Shown here piece after piece: positions 23,149 to 45,311 of a stretch of DNA of 64,000 nucleotides (within the stretch, counting starts at the first letter, position 1; the number at the start of each line of letters is the position of its first letter). This DNA is from Cirrosporium novae-zelandiae. Its lineage: Eukaryota. Both the position numbers and the translations under genes were made by a program. The stretch covers positions 372,001-436,000 of the forward strand of contig JAPETS010000012.1 in the NCBI GenBank assembly GCA_026023565.1. The letters are read 5' to 3'. Under the pieces are notes generated by a model. That model was not told where the DNA came from, did not search any database, and saw only the letters and a program-made list of their open reading frames with translations.

Positions 23149-26100
23149 ACGACGAAACTCCTGCTTATCTATATCATTTTCTTCGCCTCCGGGGCCATGG
23201 CTTCTGGAGACGACTTTGCAAATAATCTCTTTTTCGATCTTGTTTCGTGTGTATACTTATTTGTTCTATGTAGAACTTATTAACATACGATCAGGTTACT
23301 GGCCCTATTCGGTGAGAATTTTGCAAAGCAATTCCTGAGTGAGTCGTACACATAGCTCGATCATATTATATTTGCTATGGCAGCATTAGGCATTATCACT
23401 GCCATGGTAGGAGCTATTCGCGTGGCTGGTCCATCGTGGTTCAGAGCTGTGATTGGACGAGCACGTGAAAATATTGCGGCGGCCGAGCTGGAGTTTATGT
23501 CATCGACGTCGCACGAAGTCTGCGAATTATGGAACGGACAAGCAATTGTACGGACAATGGGAAAAGAAATGGTAAAGCAGATTATATATTTGGAAGGTCG
23601 CGAGAACGAGAAAGAATATGGATTATTTACTCTTACTGAGGCAAAGAAACACAACTACATGGAAGAGAATGGTAAGTAAAATAGTGCCACCCATCATATT
23701 TCCTGACTATCCTAATACTATATTTTCCTATGTTCAGAGTACCGGGGCCCATTTATTTCCGAGCTTTTATCCTTTGCAACCTCTCTATGACCGAAAGGTG
23801 CCACGAAAAGATCCGGGGATGAAACAAAAAGTAGTAAATTCTCTATATGGAATTTCTGTGGCTTAGCGACCAGGCTAGGGCTTAGAGGTACAAAGGCAAA
23901 ATCTTTATACAAAATGAGGCATCCCATATCTACAGATTCTGAATCGCTGCAGAATACGAACAGTAAGCCGAAATCGGGTATACGGCCAGATCGTTACCAG
24001 AAGCCATCACAAAGTTTGAGCTTACAGAGCGAAACTAAGACTTCAAAGCATTGCCATTCTGGAAGGGCTTCTAACATCTCACTGAACCTCCACATTGAAA
24101 AGGAACTGGGAAAGGGAAATATTATAACGAAATCTATCGAACTAGTCATCATTGCCCTTTTGGGAATTCTCCTTCAGTCAGGAGTAGTCGTCTTCTCGGC
24201 GTTTACCGCGTATAACCCACGATTGAGCACGAATCTTGGCGGACCTGTGAAGCCTTATGCATTCCCTCTTCTAGCAGTAGGAACGGTTGTCCTTGTGCTT
24301 GGAATGGCTATTTGCTCCATTGTTATCGAACAGAGCACGGAGGAGTATACATGGACAGTTCAAAACGCGGAAAAAGTAAATAAAGTATCGAATTCTAGAA
24401 CCGATCAAATACCGTCTAAAGCAGAGCCCCTCTCATTGCTGTCAAAAGCAAGTACCACCGCTCTAGGGTCTAAGATATTAAGCGACCCAACGCATAATGC
24501 TTCCCTTACACCAATAAAAACACAAATTAGCTGCAAGGAAACGGATCAGCCAATTAAGATGCGCGTCTTCTGGCTTCAAAAAGATCACACTGTTAGTGAC
24601 CAGAGTTTCAATTCTTTTTTTATCATGGCCCGAAGTACGCGCCAGAGCATTCTTACATCCAGACGTAAAGATGATTCAGACCTAACCCAATATACTGCCA
24701 AAACAACCCAGAACCAGGCGATGCATCACACAAAACACTCCCGAAATTCTGATAAAATTTATAAGTTTATTTCGAATGCACTTCGTCTCCAGACCCTCGC
24801 GATAGCGAGAGCCTTGACTGGATTAAGCGGATTTGTACTTCAGTTCGAAGCATTCCGGGGAATGAGTTGGGTTTGTTCAATTGCACAGTTGATCGCTCTC
24901 TTGCTCATGACCATTCTAAGGGCCTACGTCCGTCGAAATTTGCTTGACCGACCGCATACTGAGGGAATGGATGAAGGATATGAGATGGATTGGCTCGCCT
25001 TAAGGGTTGGCTCTTGTCCTGATTATTTAAAAGATATCGCTGGCGGGCTACCTGACTTGTCCCGGTGTGCTAATTGCGGAAAAATGTATAAAGATAAAAA
25101 TTCGAGTGAAAGGGACCAGTTACACTGCCAAGTTCCGGAGTGGGAGATTTTTTCGAAGCCGGGGTGCTTAGCAATCCCCGGATCCTTCAAGAATCCGAGA
25201 GAGTCAACCCCCGAGGGTAGCGCCATTCCGCAGGAGGTAGTGAATGCGAGGAAAAGACTAGCCGAACTTACGAGATGGATAGGACCGGCGTATGGTGATA
25301 CTATATCTATAGTCAATGCCATCGAGAAAGTGATGAATAGATTTTTCCCTCTTGGGGAACAGAGTAGAAACCATTTCGTCTGGTTTTTGGACGCTAGGGT
25401 GTTCAACGAGCAGAGTATTTCTGACGAACTAAACCCCTTTAAACCGGAAACGGGAAAAATCAAGTTTGTTGTGGAAAAAGATGAGAAGGGAATGTGGAAG
25501 GCGGATTCAAGGGAAATAGAAGCTGCCCTTTCGCTGTGGATATATCATTTCCGCAAAAGAGGACAACAAGTAATAGAAATTCAGGAAACGTCCCACGAAG
25601 TGTCTGACTGGCTACGACCTACCGAATCAAGCATGGAGATGGAACCTTTTCGAGTGTTAGGGACATATACAAATACTCTGGAGACAGACTTGCGCTTTTG
25701 GATCCGCAGTGATATTGTATCGGCATTGGAGCGGCGAGTGGATGTTAGTGAGAATGATGTTAAATCTCAACAATCCTTGATGTTAGGATTCTGCAACTTT
25801 GGTGGTATCTCCAAAGGTCAGTAATTATCCTCAATCTGTGGAGAAACCTATGCAGAGTTGCCTTACCACATCAATGAAGTTGCTAACATATCAATGCCTA
25901 GAACCTGAGGGCGAAAAGAAACTTATATTAGGAGTGCGATCTAATATTCAGCTGAAACATTTCCTAGCTCAACATATCTTTTCTGCTTTCATGTGGGCAA
26001 TTGCTGACCAGATTCCAAGCTCACGTTTTAACGAAACGACTGTTGAGGACTCTGCTAAAGGCGAATTTGACTTCACACATAATAAATTCCTCAAACTCAA

Positions 26101-29100
26101 AAATGAAAAGCTACGGGGATTAACGAGAGAACTAGAAGGCACTGGACTCGGAACATTGGAAGAAATGGAAATACTCCTCATACCGCCACTCAGCCTTGCA
26201 AGTAAGCTCCCAAATAAAATCTTGGTCGAACACATCCTGGAACGTGCGAAAAGCCACGAGAATGGTCATCACTGGGAATCAGCTTCGGGGTTATATTGTA
26301 AGCTTCTTGATCACATGTCCTCGATAGATGTATACAAGGTAATCCTAAGCGTTATCAATTTTTTATCGTTCACTCTCAATGCAACTTTCCCTGAGGATGC
26401 GGAAGCCTACGATAATGAACGAGAGTACAAGGAAGAGAACCGGTCTAGGATATTAGAAACATTGCAGGATTCAAAGCGTTTCTTGGCGGCCACGTGCGAC
26501 CTGAAAGTGCTGTATAAGAATCAGAACAGAGAGACGGAATACAGTAAAATCATAGGTTTTGATGAATTGAAAACATGCGAGGGGGGCAATTATGGTTGTG
26601 ATCAAAATCCTCACGATAAATTTGAATACACTGATCTACACACCGAGATTATAAATCTAGGTCAAAAGGAAAAGGATTCCAGCGAGAATCTTCAAGAGCT
26701 TTTGAAAAAGTACGTGGATCGGAAAGACATTCTTGGTTGGCTACCTTTACACTACGCAGTAACCTGCTGCTCTAAAGAACTAATCTCAAAGGTTCTTGAG
26801 AAATGGAGAGATGGATGCAATCAAAAGGATTCGACAGGAAGGACCCCGCTCCACTATGCGGTAATGAGAGGAGAAAAGAAGGTAGTCGAACTACTTTTGA
26901 AAGAATGCACCAAGATAGAGCAAGCAAGTGACGGCATGTTACCTTGGCATCTTGCCGCCAAGTTCGGAAAAACTGAAGTTATGGAAACCTTTCTCACTCA
27001 GTACCGATTAAACAAGCTAGACATAAACATTCTGGATAAATGGGGGAGATCTGCGCTCCATTTAGCTGCTTCCGGGGGTCATGTAATCGTTGTAAAACAA
27101 CTACTGGAAGCAACGGCCTCAGTCAATGGTAGAGATAAATTTAATCGAACAGCATTACATGTTGCTGCCTACTACAGATATGTAGAAGTTGTGGAGGAAC
27201 TTTGCAAAGCAGGGGCAGATATTGAATTGACAGAATCGAGAGGTCATATTGCATTAGTGATAGCTGCGGAAGGCAAGAAGGATTCCGACCAAAAGAAAGC
27301 GCACAGAGAAGATCAGAACAAAAATACGAAAACAGAACAATTTGAAGGAGATAAGCCTAGGAAAAATAACAATCGAGAAGAAAAAACCAAAGAATATGAA
27401 AACGGAAAAGAGGGGGGCCGCTATAGAGGAGGTGAAACGAGAGGACGCGAAACCGCAAGAAGATGCGACGCAGGAGTCTATGGGAAAAGAAAAGTATATC
27501 GATGAAGACTTGAGACGGCTAATTAGTTATTTGCGGACTGATAAAATCCCTTTGAATCCAATCTGGGCGGCAGATAAGGGATATAGAACATTACTCCAAT
27601 TGCTGATGGACGAAGCAGAACAGGACGATAAACCAGACAACTTCGGAAGAAATGTCCTACACTATACTACAAGGGGAGGGTATAGGTATATTGTTCAGGA
27701 TCTTATATTGCGGTGGGGAAAAAAGAGATCCGACCTGGAGAAGAATCGTGATATGAAGCAGGTCACGCCATCAACTGAGCCGGAAATGAACCGAGAAAAA
27801 ATACTTAGCGAACAGCAGGATTCTAAAGAGAAAAGTGAAGACAGCTACGGCGGTAAGATAGCGGCCGGTCACCAAGTACCCCCACGGGTATCCCATCATA
27901 GCCCTTTGGATCTAAAAGACCGGGACGGCGAGACCCCGTTACTCTTAGCTACGAAGAACGAGCTACAATGATAGTCAATATGTTGCTAGACAAAGGAGCC
28001 GACAAGGAAGTCAAAAGTCGCTCTGGGCAAACTCCATTGTCGTATGCTGCAGGGGAAGGGCATAAGAACACGGTGGAATTGCTTCTATCTCGTGGGGCGT
28101 GTCCAGTGACAGAGGATATTTTCGGGGACCTGCCGATATCATGGGCCGCCAAAAAGGGTCATACCGAGATCATAGAGCTGCTGCTCAATTTCGATGCGAA
28201 GATGAATATGACATGCGGTGAAGAAGAGCTATCATCAGCATTGATGTATGCCGCAGAATCTGGCCATATGAACGCTGTAAAGCTATTGCTCAAAAGAGGA
28301 GCTGAGAAAGATGCTATAAACTATTACGGTCAGACTGATTTAATTATTGCAGCGGAAAATGGATATGACGAGATTGTAGAACTACTTCTACAAAACAAAG
28401 TCAACACAAAAACAAAAGACGGCTACAACCAAACTGCTTTAATAATTGCAGCGAAAAATAGACATCACAAGGTTGCGGAACTACTTCTACAAAACGAAGT
28501 CGACACAGAAGCAAAAAACGATGAGGGCCAAACTGCTTTAATGCTTGCTGTAGAAAATAGATATATGGATATTGTACGGATCCTCTTGAAAATGGGAGTT
28601 AACAAGGAAGTGAACAACCAGGGTGGCCGGTCGGCTTTATTGTTCGCAGCAAAACGCGGGGTCCTCGATATTGTGGAGCTTCTTATTGAACGGGGGGTTG
28701 ATTTTAAAGAAGCTGATGAGTATGGTCGAAACTCTGTTGTCAAAGCCGCCCAAAGGGGCAGCTCTGAAGACGTCATGAACCTTCTGTTGGAAATGGGAGT
28801 TTCTATGGGACAAGATCAAATCGATCAAGTATTACTCTGGGCGGTTAACAATGGTTATAATACAGTACACCTTCTACTAGAAAAAGGTGCAGACATCGAG
28901 GCAAAAGATAAAAATGGAGATACTCCTTTGGGTCGTGCAATTTTGAGACAGAACGAGGTGTTAGTACAATATCTATTAGAAAAAGGTACAGACCTCGAGG
29001 CAAAAGATATAGTAGAAGATACTCCTTTGAATTTCGCAATTTGGACAAAAAATAAAACGCTGGTACAATATCTATGAGAAAAAGGTGCAGACCTCGAGGC

Positions 29101-30238
29101 AAAAAATATCCATGGAAACCCACCACTTCTTCAGGCAGCCATGAACGGTAACCCAACAATATTTCAGCTACTGTTGGACAAAGGAGCGAATATCAACTCT
29201 AAAAATGACCTTGAACAGAGCTCGCTTACTAAAGCTGTTAACATGGAGCATGAGGAGCCTGTGAGGCTTCTCTTGGATATAAGCGACACCGAACTTAATG
29301 TAATGGACGCTGAAGGTTGGACCCCAGTTACCTCAGCTGCATATATTGGTAACACTACTATAACGAAAATGCTTCTTGAACGAGGGGCAGATATAGAATT
29401 ATATCCACCATACAGTTAAACGGCTGTTCAAATGGTTGCATTAAGTGGTTTTCCAAACACCTTGAGCTTATTCTTAGACAGAGGCGCAGATATTTTGAGG
29501 CTGGATAGCCAAGACCGAACATTGCTTCACTGCGCAGCGTATGGTTGTGGCGTTGACTGTTTGAGGAGTCTAGTGGAACTATGCTTGCAAAAGGAAGCTT
29601 CGTTTGATCTTCAAAGCCAGGATAACCAAGGTCGTTCAGTGCTTTTCTACGCTGTCTTTGGGGGTAATGCTGAGATGGTGAAATACCTGATTATGGAACA
29701 CCACTTTGATGTGAATACTGCTGACAAGAGCGGCTGGCGACCAATGCACTGGGCGGCTAGAAAGGGGAACTTGTCTGTGGTGGAGGAGCTACTTGCGAAC
29801 AATGCCGACCCCGATATCCGAGAGACACTACAGAGGATGACTCCTCGTGAAATTGCGTTATTATACGGGAAGGGGCAGCTAGCTCATGATCTACCAAGAA
29901 TTGCAAAGCGGTACGGGAAAGAATTACAGGAATCAGTAATCGAAAGATCTCCTGGTAAGACACATGGGGCTCTCTGTAGCAGTTGTTTTCTTGTGAGTTC
30001 AGTCCTAATAAACTTGATATTTTCTTACCCTTTCTGGTATCTTACTAACATGATAATATACGTATAGGACATTGTTGGTAAACGTTTCCAATGCACCGTT
30101 TGCGGCGGAGGAAGAGGGTTTGATCTTTGCGAAATATGCAAGGCTACCTCGGACGAAACTCATCCTGGTCATGCTTTTAGAGAAGTTCCCCTTCAAACTG
30201 GAGACTCTTCGGATTCGGAAGAAACTCCACATCGATAA
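23149..30238 (+). pseudogene. Large membrane-anchored ankyrin-repeat protein with C-terminal ZZ zinc finger, disrupted
   Basis: N-terminal family motif GDDFANNLF..LLALFGE..AIRVAGPSW..GRARE..MSSTSHEVCELWNG, several TM helices, many ANK repeats and a last exon CSSCFL|DIVGKRFQCTVC..FDLCEIC..HPGHAF. Stops at 23353, 23788, 29075 and 29417; frameshifts near 27415 and 27965; probable start codon reads ACG. Confidence 0.8.
28875..29115 (+). repeat. About 2.5 copies of a 99-bp ankyrin-coding unit with high nucleotide identity
   Basis: Units begin ctactagaaaaaggtgcagacatcgaggcaaaa / ctattagaaaaaggtacagacctcgaggcaaaa / ctatgagaaaaaggtgcagacctcgaggcaaaa. Confidence 0.85.
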
Positions 30239-32514: not shown

Positions 32515-33696
32515 CTAGCAGGAAAACATGCTAGGTCCTACACGTTGACGTGGTGATTAGCTCCTTAAAATAACAAGGCCGAAAGAGACCGAAAAGATAA
32601 CAAAAAGGTAAGCATACCAGGGATGGTATAATTGCTAATATCCTCATAAATATTAATGAGAATGCCAGGATCCGAAGCAGAATACGCTCCCGGAAGGCTG
32701 ACGGTGGTAAAAGATTTAGTGTCGGTGCTACCCGTTACCTTGATCTGCGCGCATTCCATGTAGAATTGTGCGCCGCCCGAGGTGGATGCGCCGTGGAGGG
32801 CGATGATCTCCCCGTGCAGGAGGTACTATCCGTTTTCGATGCAGGCGGGGATGGTGATGTTTTGGAGACCTTCGGCTGCGATGAGTTCGGTCACAGCCCA
32901 GGTATCGGCTGGGAGGTGGGTGTTAGTAGTGATAGTAGTCGTAGTGGAGGGTTTGTGGGGTTGTGGGTGGCGTGAGGGCAGGGAATGGAAACATACTGCT
33001 TGCGTCGTAGCCTTCTTCCTGAACTTTGAACCATCAGTTAGGGTTAGTATTGGGAATAGATGGGAGGGAATTGGGTATGACAGACCCTGAGCCATAGCCG
33101 ATAGCGGATGTGGCATCCTCCACTTTTTTCATGTAGGTCATCACTGGGCCCTAAGGATTAATGTTAGGACATATCTAGCAATAACTGTGTTACGGAGTTA
33201 TCTTACCAGATGACTAGAATTGATAACGTCACTGCCATCACCTGACACATTTTTGTGAGTATAGAAATTGACGGTGAAAACAGACAGATCCTCTCCCTGG
33301 TCAGTGTATGTCTCCATACACCTTGCACAATATCTTCAGCAGTTACCGTGATGACCTTGTCAGAGGCGGTGGTTAGATTATCACCACCGTTGCAGGCTAT
33401 GCAGTTGGAGGTCACGTCGTATTGGGCTAAAGGAAGGATTTTTATTAGTGGAGATTGCCTCACGCTGAAAGTTGCTGGAGAGGGGAGAATAATTTTGTAC
33501 CCCGTCATAGCTAGGAACTGCAATGGCATAGCCAACACCTGCATTGCATATCAACGATAGACATTCAATAGAGAATCCTGGTGAACAGGTTGGTCCCGCC
33601 ATATTTAGTTCCACCAGCTACCAAGTTCGTCATAATAGCATGGCCGGCTGCACCAGCAAAGAGAGCGGAGAGGAGGAGACCTGCTTCAACCTTCAT
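32515..33696 (-). pseudogene. AA9 (GH61) lytic polysaccharide monooxygenase pseudogene
   Basis: Signal peptide followed by N-terminal His (AAG|HAIM), PSYDG, IACNGG, WRHTLT, SSHL|GP, WFKVQEEG, EIIALHGA, AQFYMECAQI, DPGILINIY and IPG|P..FSC*. In-frame TAG at 32826-32828 (G*YLL), a frameshift near 33425, and splice sites reading GC, GG and TG. Confidence 0.88.
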
Positions 33697-36196: not shown

Positions 36197-37578
36197 ATGT
36201 CTCAAGATGAAGATTTCGCTCAACGAACATCTGCTTTCCGAGCACATCTCCCTGATCTGAATACTCCTCGGTTCCAGAATGTTCATAGCGACGATGCCTA
36301 TGCACATGCGCATCGGTTTCTTACTCAGAAGCAGCCTCCTTGGTTGCACGAGCTGGTCATGACGTGGAAGAAGCTATATAAAGAACCTTATAATGGAATC
36401 ACCACTAATGGTTTGCGCTCGAGCCAATCTTTAAGTCCATCGTATATACACCTTGCTAATACGGCAGCTTTCCAATTGCAGGCCAAGTGATGCCGAACCT
36501 CTACCCCATTCAGGACGAACATCTTCCCATCTCCTCAATCGTCGCCAGCGTCGAAGCAGTCTTCTCCCTCTGTTCCAGTCCCCAGAAGGAAAAACTCCAG
36601 TTTCCTGCTGACGCAAAGGAATGGCGCGCGTGGTCCAATCCAGAAATCCTCATCAACCCTCTCGGTCTCCGTCTCGAAGAAGTCAGCCCAGAACTAGCCT
36701 CGGCAATCCTCAACGTGCTCCAAACAACTCTCTCTCCGGAGGGTTACGAGAAGGCTCTGGGTGCTATGCGAATCAACCATTTCCTAGGCGAGCTAGTCGG
36801 CGGCGAAAAAATAATGAACGAGCAATCATACAACTTTCTAGTTTTCGGTACCCCTTCTACGACCGACTACTGGGGCTGGTCTCTTTACGGCCACCACCTC
36901 TGCCTCAATGTCTTTCTCTACCGCCATCAAATAGTAATCGCCCCCTTCTTCACCGGCGCCGAACCCAATCTCATCGACCAGGGGCCCTACGCCGGCACCC
37001 GGATCCTAAACCAAGAAGAAACCCTAGGACTCCAACTGATGCAATCACTCCCCCCAACCCTCCAAGCGTGCGCGCAGACATACAAACTAATGAAAGACCC
37101 CGCCATGTCCATCGGCACCCTCGCCCGCTGGAACAAAGACGACCAACGCCACCTCTGCGGCGCATTTCGCGACAACCGAACCGTCCCCTACGAAGGCATC
37201 CCCATCTCCTCCTTTTCCCCAACGCAACAATCCCTAATCCTAAACATCCTCACCCAATTCCTTTTGTATCTTCCAGCTACATCCCGACGCATCAAACTCG
37301 ACTCCTGCAAGGCCCACTTCTCCACCACTTATTTCTCCTGGATTGGCGGCTACGGCGACAACGATCCCTTCTACTACCGTATCCAAAGCCCCGTCATCAT
37401 CGTAGAGTTCGACCACCATTCGGGTGTTTTCCTCAGCAATCAGGAACCGGCCAAGTTCCATATACACACGTTACTAAGGATGCCGAATCGCGGTGACTAT
37501 GGCGTCGCCTTGAGGGAACAGATCAGGGGAAACAGGGAAGTAGAGTTGAATGAGGGTGTCGGCAAGGCCATGTTGTAA
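36197..37578 (+). CDS. DUF3500 domain protein
   Basis: Intron 36411-36481. Motifs WRAWSNPE, GLRL, WGWSLYGHHLCLN, PFFTGAEP, FSWIGG, YYRIQSPVIIVEFDHH and FHIHT..R.PN.GDYG. Confidence 0.85.
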
Positions 37579-38359
37579 AGAAAAAGAAAGAAAAAACGTA
37601 GACAGACAAACAGACAGACAAATAATGATGAATGGATGGATTGGATACCTAGGTAATCTTCTTTCGAAAATGAATAAGAGAATTTATTTAACGACAACTT
37701 ATGTTTGCATTTCCCTCCCCCCTTTTTTTTCTCCCTTAAGGGGAGCTGTTAAGTTAGTTAGCAGGCATAACATAGCACGAGGGAAAGCTTATACATCTTT
37801 TGGATGCTGAGCAACCTGATGAAATTCTATTTCCTGGTTTTATTGAATCAGCAACCTCCTCCTCTGGCTCCGACCTCTAAAGATATATCTACTTATTTAT
37901 TTTCTTCGAACCTAACTAATTCCTCATTCCTCATTCCACACAAAAAAAAATGAATTTGTTGTTTGTTTCCCATCCAAGTATCCAAGATCCGAGTCCCCAA
38001 ACTCGTGCCTCTAAAAATCTCTTATTCATTTCTCACTCAAGTACCTAGATATCTAAGTAACCCCTGAAATAAACCCCAAACTCCAAAACCCAAACCCAGA
38101 AACATAAACATCAACATAAACATAAACCCATGACTAAACTCCTTCGGTAATTAGCTAATTAGCTAAAGACCACTCTGATCTTATTGTCCATATGTCCCGA
38201 GAACAACGTGTACATATACATGAATACATGAATTACAAGACACCAGACACCCATCCAATGCCGAATCCAATCCCTCTCACATCCTTCGAACAGCGTGTCC
38301 AGTACATATAGTGCATGAATTGCAAGAAACCTAGGCACCCATCTCGGACGAAGCGTTGG

Positions 38360-38485
38360 TTGTTTTGGTAAGAAACTCGCGTTAATATCCCCGATATCGA
38401 CAAAGAAGTCGTAAGGATTGACCTTGATAAGATTATGGCTCCAATTCCATACATCCCCACCGTCGTCAATAATCACAACACCCAT
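38360..38485 (-). pseudogene. FCP1: Isolated fragment of the RNA polymerase II CTD phosphatase FCP1
   Basis: VVIIDDGGDVWNWSHNLIKVNPYDFFVDIGDINASFLPK closely resembles the conserved FCP1 block VVIIDDRGDVW.WS.NLIKV.PYDFFVGIGDINSSFLPK. No flanking FCP1 sequence. Confidence 0.75.
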
Positions 38486-38524
38486 CTAATCTGACACATA
38501 ACCCCCCCCCTTTTTTTTCACTGC

Positions 38525-38680
38525 AGCGTCAGCATAATCCATCGCTAAAACATTCTCATCAAGTAGAAGCTTCATCCAAATGTAATTGCGGTTCCCTGGC
38601 TTTGATCTGATATCCCCATTGTATGTGTTGTATATGTTGATGTCCAAGCCATAGGCAAATTGCAGATAGCACCTTATAGA
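38525..38680 (-). pseudogene. Isolated frameshifted fragment of a fungal Hsp70-like (HSPA12-type) gene
   Basis: Across frames: KVLSAI/AYG...QWGYQIK/PG...YIWMKLLLDEN...DYAD, resembling the KxPSxIAY..WGYQV.PG..YSWTKLLLD block. Confidence 0.55.
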
Positions 38681-38821
38681 GGTTATTCGCTGTATCTGCC
38701 CTCCCCCCCACTCAAAAAAACACCACCAACCACCAACCCCACCACCACCGTCACAAAAACAACTACCAGCACAATAAGTGCCCCAACAAAAACCCCCATA
38801 CACCCACAAACCTATACACCG

Positions 38822-39811
38822 TTATCCAGCTCCAAGGATTCGTAATGGTAGTAGCTTGGTAGAATTTCCACATCGGGGTCTGGAGAAATGTTGGGGCCGC
38901 CGTAGTGGTCGTGGATGCATGGTGAGAGTTGGGGAGGGGGGGGGGCGAGATCTGGTCATGGTGGTTTGGAAGATGGGTTCCCAGGATGTCGAGAAGGGGG
39001 GCGGAGAAGTCGAGGGGGTCATGTCGTCGGTTTTGATGGTGGTGGTATTACTGGCGGCGGAGTTGGCGTCGTCGTCGTCGTTTGCCGATGTGTGAGAGCG
39101 GCTTAGTTTTACAAAGGGCGCTGGGACTTGGCTGGATTGATGGCGCGTTAGGACTTCCGGTGTTGGTGGTGTCGTGTGGGGACTTGATGTGCATGTATTC
39201 GTCCTTGCTAGAGCAGTGGTGACGGGGGGTCGGTCTCTTCTAGGGATGGAGGCGGAGCTTCGGACGAGGGTTGTCTCCATCGTGGGGGGGAGGGGGATAA
39301 GGGAGAGGTGTGGGTTTCACGGAAGCGGACTTTCTTTTCTCTGCGTCGTCGTGGTTGCGTGGTTTGATGCTCATGCTCCTCCTCCTCTATGTGTGGAGAT
39401 CTTTCTGCGTCTGGTTATTGTTGTTGTTCGAGTTGCTCGGCTATTTCTTTGGTTTGCGTTTGTGTTATTGTTGTTTTTTCTTCGTTCTTGTGTTGGTTTT
39501 GGCTTTGGAGATGTTAGTGTGAGCGGCGGTTAGGATCCACGAGTCAAAAAATCATGATATTGGCTTATAGTCACTATGTGAATGTCGTTTATATAAAAAG
39601 CCTAGTGAATGACTTTTTTCTTTAGTTTCTTTAATATATATATATAAAGGGGTTTGGAAACCCTGGGTAACGATGTATTTTGAGAGGATGAGTGAATAGG
39701 GAGATGGGAAAGACCAGATGGAATGGGTTTCCTTATATACCTATTAAGGTGGAGTCGCTCCTGGCCGATTTTTTTTGGGCCGACACCTTGATTGAGACTC
39801 GGGGAAGACAT
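38822..39811 (-). pseudogene. Degenerate low-complexity gene relic of unknown family
   Basis: One frame reads KEIAEQLEQQQ*PDAE..RRREKKVRFRET..SPLL*QGR, with TAA/TAG next to Gln codons. Confidence 0.35.
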
Positions 39812-40291
39812 TAAAACCTGGGGTTTTGTTGGGGTTTCTGTTGTGTGCTAGTTAATTTGTTATCCTAAAGCTTGAGGAAGTAAGTTGCCTTGATTTGGAA
39901 GCTCCTTTCAGGGAGTTTGGGGCAGAAAAGGCTCTTTGAAGGTATTGGCCCCGTTGATCACAGGATGACGATGTTTGATATTTGCAGGTACGTCTAGTAA
40001 AAGTTTAGTCGTGTTAAAATTTAGAGAAACTGTGACACTCAAAGGAGAGAGTAATACAACTTGAAGTTTTAGCATGGAATTCGATATTTCTTCGATTTAT
40101 AGCCCCATTGGCTGATGTTTCAGCTCCGATACAATTATAAGGCAAGACTTGAAAGTCAAAAAAAGCAAAAGCATTAATGATATGTATGCAAAGTTAACTT
40201 TTCAGCTCCGCTCAACGCCTGAACCTATTCCCTGCTTTCTAACTATTAACCACCCACCCAGGTGGTCTATAGTTATTTTATCAGTTACATT

Positions 40292-41224
40292 TCACGTCTT
40301 CGTTTCTATATCATTGAGCAGCTGGTTGAAATCTTTCTCCTCTCCAACCAGATCTTGACTGTTGAATGATGCCAGCCATCTAATCTTTTTAATGCAAGTC
40401 ATCTCCCTCAGCTTTGAAAGTATAACAAAATGTCCGTTGACTTTCCGAGATTCTGCGAGAAGCTTTTCATAGCATCCGTAGTCGGGATTTCTGACTAGAT
40501 CCTGTCTTGTATTCTCTTGCAGTATCAATTCCAGCACCACAAGGTCTCGGAGGTTGCTGATAAGCTTCATCAAGTGCTCGAGGGATTTCCATTTAGGGAC
40601 TAGGACGAACATAAGACGGTCGGAGACGGTATACGGCATACTGCGTAAATGCCAATAAGTAATCAATTCTTTGTCCACATTAATGGAGAGGTGTTTGATT
40701 AGACTCCGTCGTTCTTCGCCGATGGCTTCTAGGAAGGGGACACATTCCTCGTGTTTTCTGAAGGTGAACTTCGCCTCTTGCCAGAATAGAGGCATTGCTT
40801 CGTTATATATATCACGACATGTTGAAAAGAAAGGAAGATGATCTGAGAAAAGGTATTGCTGAGATTCGAGTTTAGGACAATGACCAATAAGAGAGAAGGC
40901 ATGTTCGCTGCCATCCATATAAGTATGGAGGTGGAGGTTGGAATGAATGTCGAGTACGTAACGATAGATTTGGAGGCGAATTTCCAAAGGAAAGTGGAAG
41001 AATAGAGTAAATTGTGGACCTTGCACATGTTGTTTCTGAGGGTTGGACGGGTAACGTTTGTTGAGGATTTGTTGGAGTTGACCTAAAACCTGGTCTTTGA
41101 CGTTTCTGGGTGCCAGTTGAGCCTGTAGGGCTTCAATAACTGTCAACTGAGCCTTGATAGCTCTTAAGCGTTGATCAACCGACAACCGCCCCATGTCTTC
41201 TGAGTGTTCAATGGAAGATCCCAT
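40292..41224 (-). CDS. Hypothetical protein with an F-box-like/2EXR-like motif
   Basis: Intact 310 aa ORF with FTLFFHFPLEIRLQIYRYVL and TCRDIYNEAMPLFW. Confidence 0.7.
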   Translation of the reverse strand: MGSSIEHSEDMGRLSVDQRLRAIKAQLTVIEALQAQLAPRNVKDQVLGQLQQILNKRYPSNPQKQHVQGPQFTLFFHFPLEIRLQIYRYVLDIHSNLHLHTYMDGSEHAFSLIGHCPKLESQQYLFSDHLPFFSTCRDIYNEAMPLFWQEAKFTFRKHEECVPFLEAIGEERRSLIKHLSINVDKELITYWHLRSMPYTVSDRLMFVLVPKWKSLEHLMKLISNLRDLVVLELILQENTRQDLVRNPDYGCYEKLLAESRKVNGHFVILSKLREMTCIKKIRWLASFNSQDLVGEEKDFNQLLNDIETKT

Positions 41225-42039
41225 GCTGTTTCCTCATGGCTTTATTCTGTGACGAAAGGTGAGAAGCTTGGCTCTGGACTAATTATATCCTTGGAACTTT
41301 TTAAACCAGCCTGTGCGGGGAAGCTTGATGATTTATTAATGTATCCTCTCACGTCAGTTCATCAGCCTGGAATTTCTTGAAATAAAAATAAAAAAAAGAA
41401 AGCAATTGGGTGAATTTTCTTTGGTACTGTACAGTAGTCGAAAGATTTACATTTCACATCCCTGACCAATTCACTGTGCAGCTATATACCCAGGTAAATT
41501 CTTTACTTGCAGCTGTGAGCGGAAAGGGCGGAGTTCCCAAAATTAAGTTACACAGCCCTGGGCCTCCAGGTGCCTTTGCTTTGGGCCTAAAACCTCCGCT
41601 TTGACTGGTGGTGAAACAAGCTACAGTAACTGTATATCTAGGACTACACAGGATGGTGCCTGAAGGTATGTTATGTCGTTGAAAATGCAATAATTAATGA
41701 TAATGTCGTTGCCTGCCGCCGTAGTCCTCTGATAACAATCTCAAGTCTCCAAAATTAAGAGGATCGTCAATGTGATATACTTGATCGGGTTTGCTGACCT
41801 TTCTACTTTTGGGTGTCAGCGCGATGTGGCTATGCCAGTGCTGAAAGTAAAGGAAAATATCAATCCAATCACCTGCCAAGGCCCCCTCCAGGTGCCCCAA
41901 AAGCTTGATGAGCAACAAGCTTCTTACGCCCGTTATCAATTGATCAATATTACTGCCTGATTCTTGCCTTGTATATATATCTAAACTAACATGGCTACTT
42001 TCTTGCGCCTCTCGTTATTATCCTTCAAGCTTAACTCAT

Positions 42040-42125
42040 TGACTCCTTGACTCTTTGACCCCTTGAATTTTTGACTTTTGACCTTTGACCTTTGACCTTT
42101 TGACCTTCACTTTTGACTTTGACTC
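42040..42125. repeat. Degenerate (TTTGACC/T)n array just upstream of the ATG at 42158
   Basis: About 11 imperfect TTGAC-containing units. Confidence 0.85.
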
Positions 42126-42157
42126 CTGGATTTTCCATCACAATTCCTTCAGTCACC

Positions 42158-43773
42158 ATGGGTCCCATCGCAAGACTAATTGGATCTGGCATTGGATTGG
42201 TCCAAGAGGCTCGTGCAGCCAATAAGGCAAAGTCACCATCTGCTGAACCAAACAGCGACGACAGGTTTGGAGAAGATGAAGCTGCTGCTTCCTCGTCCAG
42301 AGCTCCTCCACCACCTCGACCTTCAATTGATCCCATTGAAAAACACGATTCAAAGGATGGTTACAGCGACGATTCAGATGGTCCTTTTAATGATGACGAG
42401 GCCTACTGGGACCTCGATGAAGCAATTGAGGGCAGCCGCGAATCTTTACCTTCCTACGAACAGTCTCAAGCCAGCGATGATGTCGATTCCATGATTCGAT
42501 CTTTTGTGGCCCACCATCCAGCACCAGCGTACTCTTCTACCACTCGATTGCCTCTCCCGGTGATTATTCCCCAACGAAGGCCTCGTAACAAAACACGAGG
42601 CTTTGTTCACGCCTATGCACCGGTACTCGCAGATTGTGGAATTGATCAGCAGACCTTCTTAGATTTCCTGGTCACTTTCCACAAAGCCAGCCAGGTATGA
42701 TCATAACCACTACGATCTTTCCCAGTGGAATGTCTATTAATCTGGAATAGGCTTCACCGTACATTGAGGTTATCAATCTTGCTGCAATGGGCCTGGGATT
42801 TGTGCCATCGATATCGACTCAAGTTACTAGCGCCGTTCTACAGATCGTTGCTGGCACCGCGAAAGCGGTACAATCAAGATATAGGTTTGACATCTGCTAC
42901 TATAACGTCTACAGTCCCTAATGCGAACACTATTCTAGGACCAATTCTTTTCTTGACAAAATGAACGATCAACTCTTCAAGCCGCATGGCCTATTTTGCA
43001 TGATCATGACTTTCAAACCCGATAAACCTAACTCTCTATGTGAAGAAATTGATATAAATAAATTGGTCGTCAAGACAATGACACCTGCTAGTTCAGCCAT
43101 GAGGGAGAAAATGAAGAGTCTTCGCATGGCTAGTGGGGAAACTCGTGGCGAGTTACAGCTTCCTGAAGCAGCGCCTCTAATATTTCCTAAGCTTGATCAA
43201 TTGGCGGACGAAGCCGGCGCAGACCAAGCAAAGCAGAACAAATTTAAGCAGAGCACGGCTTTTGTGAGCGACTATCTTGATCGGAGGGCTCAGGCTACTT
43301 ATGTAAGTCATAGTCTAAGAATCGAAGAGGCAACACCACTGACCAACGCTAAAGAACGCTCAAAATCCGAACTCAATTCTCGCCGTTCAACAGCCCCAGC
43401 AGTTTGCTTCTCGTTACAGTGATCCCAACCATCCTGCATCAAGCGGTTCGCTCATTAGCCTTGTGACTGGTGGTCACGTTAATCCTATGGCAGCTCGTCA
43501 AAGCAGACGGGCCGCGAAACATGAGCGCAAAGACCAGAAAAGAGCTCGCTATGGGCGGGATCCTGTATCTAGAGGGCCAAACGGGAGGAAACAAACAATG
43601 ATCAGGAAAGCATTGACACAGGTAGGTCACTAAAATGACTAGAATGATTAACCACTCCCTAAAGTCCCAAGACACAAGAAGCTAATGCATCTAACTAGAA
43701 TGTACTATATCTGATGGTGGTTAATATGCCAACCGATGAGGAAATTGCAGAGGCTAGAACTTTTCTAGGCTAA
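42158..43773 (+). CDS. Conserved fungal hypothetical protein (PVIIPQRRP..RGFV.AYAPVL family)
   Basis: Five exons splice in frame (introns 42695-42750, 42885-42938, 43303-43354, 43622-43698). Motifs FASRYSDPNHPASSGSLISLVTGG and VLYLMVVNMPT. Confidence 0.85.
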
Positions 43774-43901
43774 GAAGATGGTTTGCATAATTACGAGTTA
43801 TAGTTGGATGAAAAGATGGCGCAGCATTATGATATTTCTATAATTGATATTGAACTCACTTAAACTTGAATAACTCTTTCTCTCGGGTTCAGCATTATGC
43901 T

Positions 43902-45311
43902 TTACAGTCTTGCGTCTGATTTCTCGGCCTCATTGATCCACTGAATGTCGTCTTTCAAATACTTATGCGCTCTTAGATCTCCCGATCTTGCATGTCCTTC
44001 AAACTTCTCTGCTCTTGCTGCGCGTCCACACAATCGACCCAACTCCCCGCTTGACTGTTCTGAAGTGACTTCCTGATACGTAACAGTACGAAGGAACTTG
44101 CCCACCCACAGACCACCTGTATATCGTGCAGCCTTTCGGGTAGGTAAAACATGGTTTGTGCCAATGCATTTATCTCCATATGAAACGCAAGTCTTCTCGC
44201 CTAGGAACAACGCACCGTACTGTTTCATCTTGGTGAGGGCCTCACGAGGATTCCTCGTCAGAATCTGAACATGTTCGGCGGCGTACTTGTCCGCAAGGGC
44301 ATATGCTTCGTCTAAATTATCGACAACAGCTACTTCTCCGAACGATGACCAAGATTGGCTGGCAATAGGCGCAGTGGGTAGAATCTTAAGCAACTCGTTG
44401 ACCGTTTCTATTGCCTTGTTCCCAACGGTCTCCGAGGTTGTAATGAGGACCGCTGGGGTGTCAGGTCCATGCTCGGCCTGCGATAGCAGATCAGTAGCAA
44501 TAGTAAAGGGGTCGGCGTTTTCATCGGCCACAATTAAGACCTCGGTAGGTCCCGCAAACAGATCAATTCCAACCTCACCGAACAACATTCTCTTTGCCTC
44601 GGCCACAAAGGCATTTCCAGGTCCAGCAATAAAATCTACTCTTGGAATGGTTTCGGTTCCAATTGCCATGGCAGCAACAGCTTGAACCCCTCCCAAGATG
44701 TAGATGGCATCCGCACCAGCGAGGTGCATGGCAGCGATGGTGCTATAGGGGATCTCACCAGCAATTGGTGGGGTACAACCAATGACATGAGGAACACCAG
44801 CGACCTTTGCAGTCAGAATAGTCATATGCGCTGAGGCAAGCAAAGGATATCGACCACCAGGAATATATCTATAAAGGGTCACATCACATCAGCACACAAC
44901 TCCCTCCAACCCTTTCAATTTGGGCAAAAAAAAAAAAACTTACGCCCCCACTCGCTCAATCGGAACATTCTTCTGCCCCAACCAAACCCCCTCCCCCATC
45001 TCCATCTCAAACTCCTTTAAGTTTTCCTTCTGCACCTTCGCGAACCTCCTCACATTATCCTGCACCTGCTTGATATCCTCAATCACCTGTGCCGACACCT
45101 TGGTGGTCATGATGTCCTCGATTTCGGCTGCGGAGAGCTTGAACGAGGGGGGTGTCCATTTGTCGAATTTTTGGGAGTAGTTCCGTACGGCGGTGTCGCC
45201 GTTGGTGCGGATATCATCGATTACGCCTTTGACGACGGATGCGACGTCGAAGGTGGGTGAAGATGAGGTGGAGGAGGGAGGGGCTTTGGATTTTAGGTAT
45301 CTTGGTGCCAT
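43902..45311 (-). CDS. Stand-alone histidinol dehydrogenase homolog (HisD family, HpsN-like)
   Basis: Start MAPRYLK, intron 44869-44943. Motifs YIPGGRYP, GGVQAVAAMA, GPGNAFVAEAKR, IDLFAGPTE, SQAEHG, AEHVQ, SYGDK..GTNHVLPT and EGHARS. Confidence 0.92.

Follow-up and report, generated by a model that had tools for sequence, protein, structure and literature searches.

Two probably unrelated catabolic genes, for a DUF3500 protein and an HpsN-related dehydrogenase, at one locus of Cirrosporium novae-zelandiae

Introduction

This study concerns two genes of the fungus Cirrosporium novae-zelandiae, one encoding a DUF3500 protein and the other a stand-alone member of the HisD (histidinol dehydrogenase) family, that lie in a 64,000-nucleotide stretch of contig JAPETS010000012.1 (positions 372,001 to 436,000), here called the window. 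A fungal DUF3500 protein has been placed in gallate catabolism by Martins et al., whose four-gene pathway consists of a monooxygenase, the DUF3500 protein, a short protein with no known domain and an FAH-like protein (PMC10832562; bioRxiv 10.1101/2023.06.06.543907). According to the sections of that paper drawn on here, Aspergillus nidulans lacking its DUF3500 gene AN10530 grows poorly when given gallate, 2,4,6-trihydroxybenzoate or tannic acid, and 1,2,3,5-tetrahydroxybenzene builds up (PMC10832562). Ring cleavage by AN10530 is presented there as the authors' hypothesis, without an in vitro assay. The same source reports a log2 fold change of 10.7 on gallate for the Aspergillus terreus DUF3500 gene (PMC10832562 supplement) and the dispersal of the partner genes over several loci in Aspergilli, and the relevant part of a 2025 review restates this account of the pathway (PMC12388069).

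For the dehydrogenase, the nearest described system is HpsN of Cupriavidus pinatubonensis, which acts on the sulfonate R-2,3-dihydroxypropane-1-sulfonate (R-DHPS) as a 3-dehydrogenase (PDB 8v35). In the portions of the structural report used here, the zinc ligands of HpsN are Gln248, His251, Asp352 and His411, the catalytic pair is Glu318/His319 and the sulfonate is contacted by His126 and Lys353; the motif G-R-Y-A/S-H is given for HpsN and G-S-A-P-L for HisD (PMC11382572).

A first-pass annotation of the window had grouped the two genes as a candidate catabolic module. We find that the pair is not conserved in any test run and that the two genes co-occur at chance level in the bacterial genomes counted. 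The reading we favour, with a probability of about 0.82, is that these are two functionally separate catabolic genes that are neighbours by chance, and as a module the locus therefore matters little.

Linkage and co-occurrence

Both genes are intact, have one intron apiece and are arranged tail-to-tail with 6,324 bp between them. As they converge, they have no promoter region in common. The gene models, the GT-AG introns and the database matches agree on this; two intact, intron-bearing genes about 6.3 kb apart had been noted from the first.

A metagenome scan, using an alignment of 23 fungal DUF3500 proteins as the query, was the source of 360 confirmed loci, 80 of which were kept. A HisD-like gene was found near the DUF3500 gene in none of the 80 (tblastn, E value up to 1), of which only 23 are able to show the pair at the spacing seen in the window because the contigs are short. 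No homolog of the other window genes was found in the same 80 loci. The reciprocal scan of GTDB genomes with the dehydrogenase retained 80 of at least 505 loci, 40 of them with full 10 kb flanks; nine carry a gene of the clade to which the window dehydrogenase belongs (named GRYP here, after its sequence motif) and 71 an HpsN-type gene. DUF3500 was again detected in none of these 80, either by tblastn or with a hidden Markov model built from 120 matches. The partner gene was likewise absent from the plasmid regions searched, seven around relatives of the dehydrogenase and four around relatives of the DUF3500 gene.

Co-occurrence was counted in two bacterial groups, with expected values computed by hand. 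In the family of a Streptomyces centre (151 genomes), the dehydrogenase type was found in 15 genomes, DUF3500 in 18 and both in two, one of which is the centre itself, against 1.8 expected. The order of a Burkholderiales centre (201 genomes) had 25 with the dehydrogenase type, 12 with DUF3500 and one with both, against 1.5 expected. The two genes were on different contigs in all three double-positive genomes. In fungi, where linkage was sampled (the metagenome loci and five species) rather than surveyed, five species appeared in the best 120 matches of both proteins, and the contigs carrying the two proteins differed in size in all five; the window's own pair gave the same size. Orthologs were thus unlinked wherever checked, and their presence was uncorrelated in the bacteria counted; the proposal of a two-gene module is not supported.

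The DUF3500 protein

The spliced DUF3500 product matched a database protein of equal length at 100% over the queried exon (P0001). It matches PF12006 with 386.9 bits (cut-off 27.2) across model positions 4-296 of 297. In the genome (31.4 Mb, 128 contigs), the DUF3500 gene was the sole PF12006 locus found. The motifs GHH, DHH and H-x-H correspond to H209/H210, H383/H384 and H398/H400, and all six His are invariant in the 23 aligned fungal proteins. The histidine clusters that the first-pass annotation had taken as a sign of metal binding are therefore strictly conserved; metal binding itself is an extrapolation from them.

An AlphaFold model of the protein had a mean confidence score (pLDDT) of 77.7 and a pTM of 0.85. 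Locally the pLDDT was about 89 at GHH and only 59-63 at DHH and HIH. The sole structural match was PDB 9x86 (Z 19.2, rmsd 2.9 over 252 residues; Foldseek E value 9.7e-14). No known dioxygenase fold was recovered with this model, the next Z score below 9x86 being 3.8, and a dioxygenase is still compatible with that result. PDB 9x86 is titled 'dehydratase ApmL in Amipurimycin biosynthesis', and this title is the one source for the role of ApmL; a literature search on amipurimycin and dehydratase found no paper naming ApmL. The first solved protein with the DUF3500 fold is titled a dehydratase, which does not fit the idea that fungal members cleave the ring. It offers a template for the DUF3500 fold as well as a concrete alternative to that hypothesis.

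The gene neighbourhoods of DUF3500 relatives were compared after near-identical metagenome loci had been merged into 69 groups. The recurrent neighbours were an FAD-dependent monooxygenase (11 groups), the short protein with no known domain (8), an FAH-like gene (7) and a fungal transcription factor (7), a combination that corresponds to the published cluster (PMC10832562). The housekeeping gene for Med16 was the neighbour in another seven groups. One locus of the same sequence subtype as the window protein (L144) carries MFS, monooxygenase, tannase and short-protein genes. In the C. novae-zelandiae genome itself, a homolog of the short protein was found on contig C107 (57% identity, open frame) and the best FAH-like match on contig C58 (46-61%). 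The best monooxygenase matches, with two cluster monooxygenases as queries and the PhyA type not among them, were 40% and 33% identical. With homologs on other contigs, the partners are dispersed, as published for Aspergilli.

The window DUF3500 gene is likely the counterpart of AN10530 and of ATEG_08221-22 of A. terreus. The first-pass annotation had called the candidate module undescribed. As far as DUF3500 is concerned this does not hold, since for a fungal member the gallate pathway has already been studied by gene deletion and metabolite analysis (PMC10832562, in the sections cited above).

The HisD-family dehydrogenase

The spliced dehydrogenase likewise gave a 100% match over the queried exon to a database protein of equal length (P0121), and PF00815 matches of 379 and 68 bits. 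The motifs QAEH, EH, GD and GH were located at Q253/H256, E321/H322, D355 and H415, so that all zinc and catalytic residues are kept, as had been noted in the initial annotation. The genome contains two PF00815 loci. The second, on contig C59, encodes a fusion with a PRA-PH domain and has the motifs GTAVL and GDY, which identifies it as the His4 type. The window dehydrogenase, about 32% identical to it, is accordingly not the housekeeping enzyme of histidine biosynthesis, in agreement with the earlier view.

Among solved proteins its closest relative was HpsN (294 bits, E value 1.6e-86), followed by HisD (222 bits), and the description of the protein as HpsN-like was borne out. In place of the HpsN motif it carries GRYPL, with Leu132 at the position of His126. 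Among its best 120 database matches, 119 have G[RK]YPL, 118 have GDK and none has the HpsN-type His. A FastTree phylogeny was built from 51 sequences picked from 84 locus matches and 120 database matches and was rooted on the genome's own His4. The fungal proteins grouped with a copy from an Arthrobacter plasmid (support 0.999), and this group was sister to actinobacterial copies (0.986). Together, the fungal and bacterial copies belonged to a GRYP[LM] clade (0.979) that was separate from the HpsN-type sequences (0.974).

By motif and tree position, the dehydrogenase is a member of a sister clade of HpsN that many filamentous ascomycetes possess and whose fungal copies lie within bacterial ones. 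It is probably of bacterial ancestry, judging from thin sampling and a single FastTree topology; the nesting of the fungal copies is in line with what had been suggested at the outset. A search of titles for histidinol dehydrogenase, combined with monofunctional fungal forms, horizontal gene transfer, gene clusters, flavonoid and gallate, turned up none that deals with this fungal enzyme. The 'histidinol dehydrogenase' of GRYPL type in fungi is, on these sequence grounds, a mislabelled and uncharacterised HpsN sister enzyme present in many filamentous ascomycetes. The substrate of the GRYPL clade, once found, would fill a gap in both fungal and bacterial catabolism.

Bacterial contexts of the GRYP clade

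The neighbours of the GRYP-clade gene in actinobacteria included genes for a LacI regulator, cupin, alpha/beta hydrolase, SDR, HpcH aldolase, sugar transport and tandem SnoaL proteins. In all five actinobacterial loci scanned an SDR gene was immediately downstream of the GRYPL gene. Used as a query in the C. novae-zelandiae genome, this SDR gave best matches of 33-36%, and the tandem SnoaL and cupin genes were not found there with the queries used. Other contexts combined an iron-containing alcohol dehydrogenase with methylmalonate-semialdehyde dehydrogenase, thiamine pyrophosphate-dependent enzymes or acyl-CoA genes. No sulfolactate-pathway annotation was present among the bacterial neighbours examined.

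In two plasmids, pNL2 of Novosphingobium aromaticivorans (L219) and a plasmid of Emticicia (L218), the GRYP-clade gene is found in large clusters of monooxygenase, VOC, FAH, hydrolase and SDR genes. These clusters, which presumably resemble flavonoid (fde) clusters, are a tractable place for finding the substrate of the clade. A second HisD-family paralog, with the motif AGRFPL (ADK or SDK in the two aligned), was seen at four actinobacterial loci (L006:3908-5266, L011:3926-5284, L013:16777-18105 and L014:3391-4710). A few kb separate it from the gene of GRYPL type, which puts two non-histidine HisD paralogs in one actinobacterial gene set.

Proposed functions and alternative explanations

If the two genes are functionally separate, the DUF3500 protein would be the enzyme of this fungus that acts on 1,2,3,5-tetrahydroxybenzene formed from gallate or 2,4,6-trihydroxybenzoate. 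Most likely it would open the ring by means of a metal bound to its conserved His cluster, to give 5-hydroxydienelactone, to be converted to acetopyruvate by the short protein and the FAH-like hydrolase encoded on other contigs. The gene, its family, the conserved residues and the partner homologs were observed here, and the pathway role of AN10530 comes from the literature; orthology, metal binding and ring cleavage are extrapolated. The HisD-like protein would be a dimeric, Zn2+- and NAD+-dependent dehydrogenase, and from the chemistry of the family it would probably take a primary alcohol or hydrated aldehyde to the acid in a four-electron oxidation with two NAD+. Its residues, motif class and tree position were observed here. 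The substrate would probably be small and polar and carry a vicinal OH or NH2 group to chelate the zinc; neither histidinol nor DHPS is likely to be that substrate. Several points weigh against this picture. No close gallate monooxygenase was found (best about 40%), leaving the upper pathway incomplete as seen; the A. terreus member used for comparison (P0088) is only presumably ATEG_08221-22; and the only solved protein with the DUF3500 fold bears the title of dehydratase. Many metagenome contigs are short, with at least 8 kb downstream in 23 of the 80 loci and at least 8 kb on both sides in 16, and the comparison of fungal contigs covers five species, one of them ambiguous (Glonium), with paralogs possible. 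Finally, a monooxygenase and/or VOC and FAH genes stand beside the GRYP-clade gene in three of seven plasmid regions and in one of five actinobacterial loci (L010), with the result that some bacterial GRYP-clade operons look like aromatic catabolism.

These bacterial neighbourhoods, in which an FAD monooxygenase and/or VOC, FAH and SDR genes accompany the GRYP-clade gene, also speak for a functional module. In that case the dehydrogenase would serve in the polyphenol pathway of the DUF3500 protein, for instance in converting an aldehyde or alcohol arising from ring cleavage to an acid, and the locus would be a cluster that either formed recently in this lineage or survives in it as a remnant. 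In keeping with this, the genome has a single copy of each gene, and both are catabolic. Neither linkage nor co-occurrence was seen in any test, however, two unrelated intact genes intervene and the pair converges. The published pathway consists of four genes, a search by term of Tables S4 and S5, the latter with the pathway loci, gave no gene labelled histidinol dehydrogenase, and the parts of the paper cited make no mention of histidinol (PMC10832562). A module is on balance quite improbable. Just as doubtful, in our view, is a wider version, in which the GRYPL dehydrogenase would have come from actinobacteria, been retained throughout filamentous ascomycetes and be an enzyme so far missing from the lower pathway of phloroglucinol-type polyphenol catabolism. 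In bacteria a VOC dioxygenase, and in fungi the His-rich DUF3500 fold, would cleave the ring; the dehydrogenase would then oxidise the ring-opened aldehyde or alcohol to an acid, and this locus would be a rare joining of both genes.

The DUF3500 protein may instead be a hydratase or dehydratase like ApmL (Amc20), working next to the ring-opening step and not at it, with the two genes still unrelated. The structural match and the shared GHH would fit this, and ring cleavage by AN10530 is itself a hypothesis; the AN10530 deletion, however, accumulates tetrahydroxybenzene as an intact aromatic (PMC10832562, as cited above), ApmL is a distant relative with Asn at the first His of DHH, and no ApmL paper was found against which its title could be checked. 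We consider this alternative unlikely. Far less likely still is that the dehydrogenase is an HpsN-type sulfonate enzyme that makes the acid from DHPS or cysteinolate, DUF3500 being either unrelated or part of the same sulfonate route. HpsN is its top PDB match and the equivalents of Lys353 and Asp352 are kept (GDK), but the tree sets the clade apart from HpsN-type sequences and the neighbours examined give no hint of a sulfolactate pathway. The first-pass annotation had proposed a non-histidinol substrate such as a sulfonate; a non-histidinol substrate is likely, whereas the sulfonate is weakened because the sulfonate-binding His126 of HpsN is Leu in the window protein. A redundant true histidinol dehydrogenase is similarly very improbable. 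Most database names read histidinol dehydrogenase and the protein scores above the TIGR00069 hisD cut-off (371 versus 244 bits), but the genome has a His4-type fusion on another contig, GRYPL and GDK replace GTAVL and GDY, and HpsN, the closer relative, is inactive on histidinol.

Other features of the locus

The features of the locus are listed in Table 1. The neighbours had been described as mostly decayed; both genes intervening between the pair are in fact intact, and the sole decayed neighbour verified is the AA9 (lytic polysaccharide monooxygenase) gene, which encodes an N-terminal His after the signal peptide. Its in-frame stop makes it a probable pseudogene. The exons scanned of the five-exon gene gave no Pfam match, and its product matched only unnamed fungal clusters in the ESM Atlas, at 0.82 or lower. 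A very long ankyrin-repeat gene is made up of overlapping open reading frames (ORFs) in different frames, through either introns or frameshifts, and a small 107-aa ORF has a signal-peptide-like start, a Cys/Gly-rich body and no Pfam match. In the assembly as a whole, contigs C35 and C47 gave identical matches at identical or near-identical coordinates, which suggests a duplicated contig.

Table 1. Features of the locus, in window coordinates
Feature	Position	Strand	Remarks
Ankyrin-repeat gene	23791-30237	+	
AA9 multi-exon gene, upstream	32613..33696 (lower end approximate)	-	One in-frame stop, 32828-32826
Small ORF, 107 aa	35229-35552	+	
DUF3500 gene, 436 aa	exons 36197-36410, 36482-37578	+	PF12006 match; A. 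terreus member 61% identical over 410 aa
Intron of DUF3500 gene	36411..36481	+	71 nt, GT-AG
Intervening intact ORF, 310 aa	40292..41224	-	DUF7730 / 2EXR family; belongs to neither pathway
Intervening intact gene, five exons, 458 aa	42158..43773	+	Fungal hypothetical protein; canonical introns
HisD-family dehydrogenase, monofunctional, 444 aa	exons 45311-44944, 44868-43902	-	PF00815; GRYPL/GDK subfamily, HpsN sister
Intron of dehydrogenase gene	44869..44943	-	75 nt, GT-AG

Comparison with known systems

With AN10530 and ATEG_08221-22 the window DUF3500 protein shares its Pfam family over the full length, with identities of 61% to a protein of A. terreus and 66% to one of A. unguis. The published cluster contains relatives 60-65% identical to the window gene, and the partners are dispersed as in Aspergilli. 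It differs in belonging to a subtype with WRAWSNPE and a short insertion before RWN, common to Glonium, Paecilomyces and L144, and in having neither an adjacent partner gene nor a close monooxygenase ortholog found in the genome. ApmL shares the predicted fold and the GHH motif, while it is 21-23% identical, shorter (297 aa) and from a biosynthetic setting.

The dehydrogenase resembles HpsN in having equivalents of its zinc ligands (Q253, H256, D355 and H415), of its catalytic pair (E321/H322) and of Lys353 (K356), and departs from it in the GRYPL motif, in forming a separate clade and in its gene neighbourhoods. With HisD and fungal His4 it has in common PF00815, the metal and catalytic residues and a score above TIGR00069 (370.8 bits, cut-off 243.8). 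Unlike them, it is a stand-alone protein, with GRYPL rather than a motif of the G-S-A-P-L type and with GDK rather than GDY.

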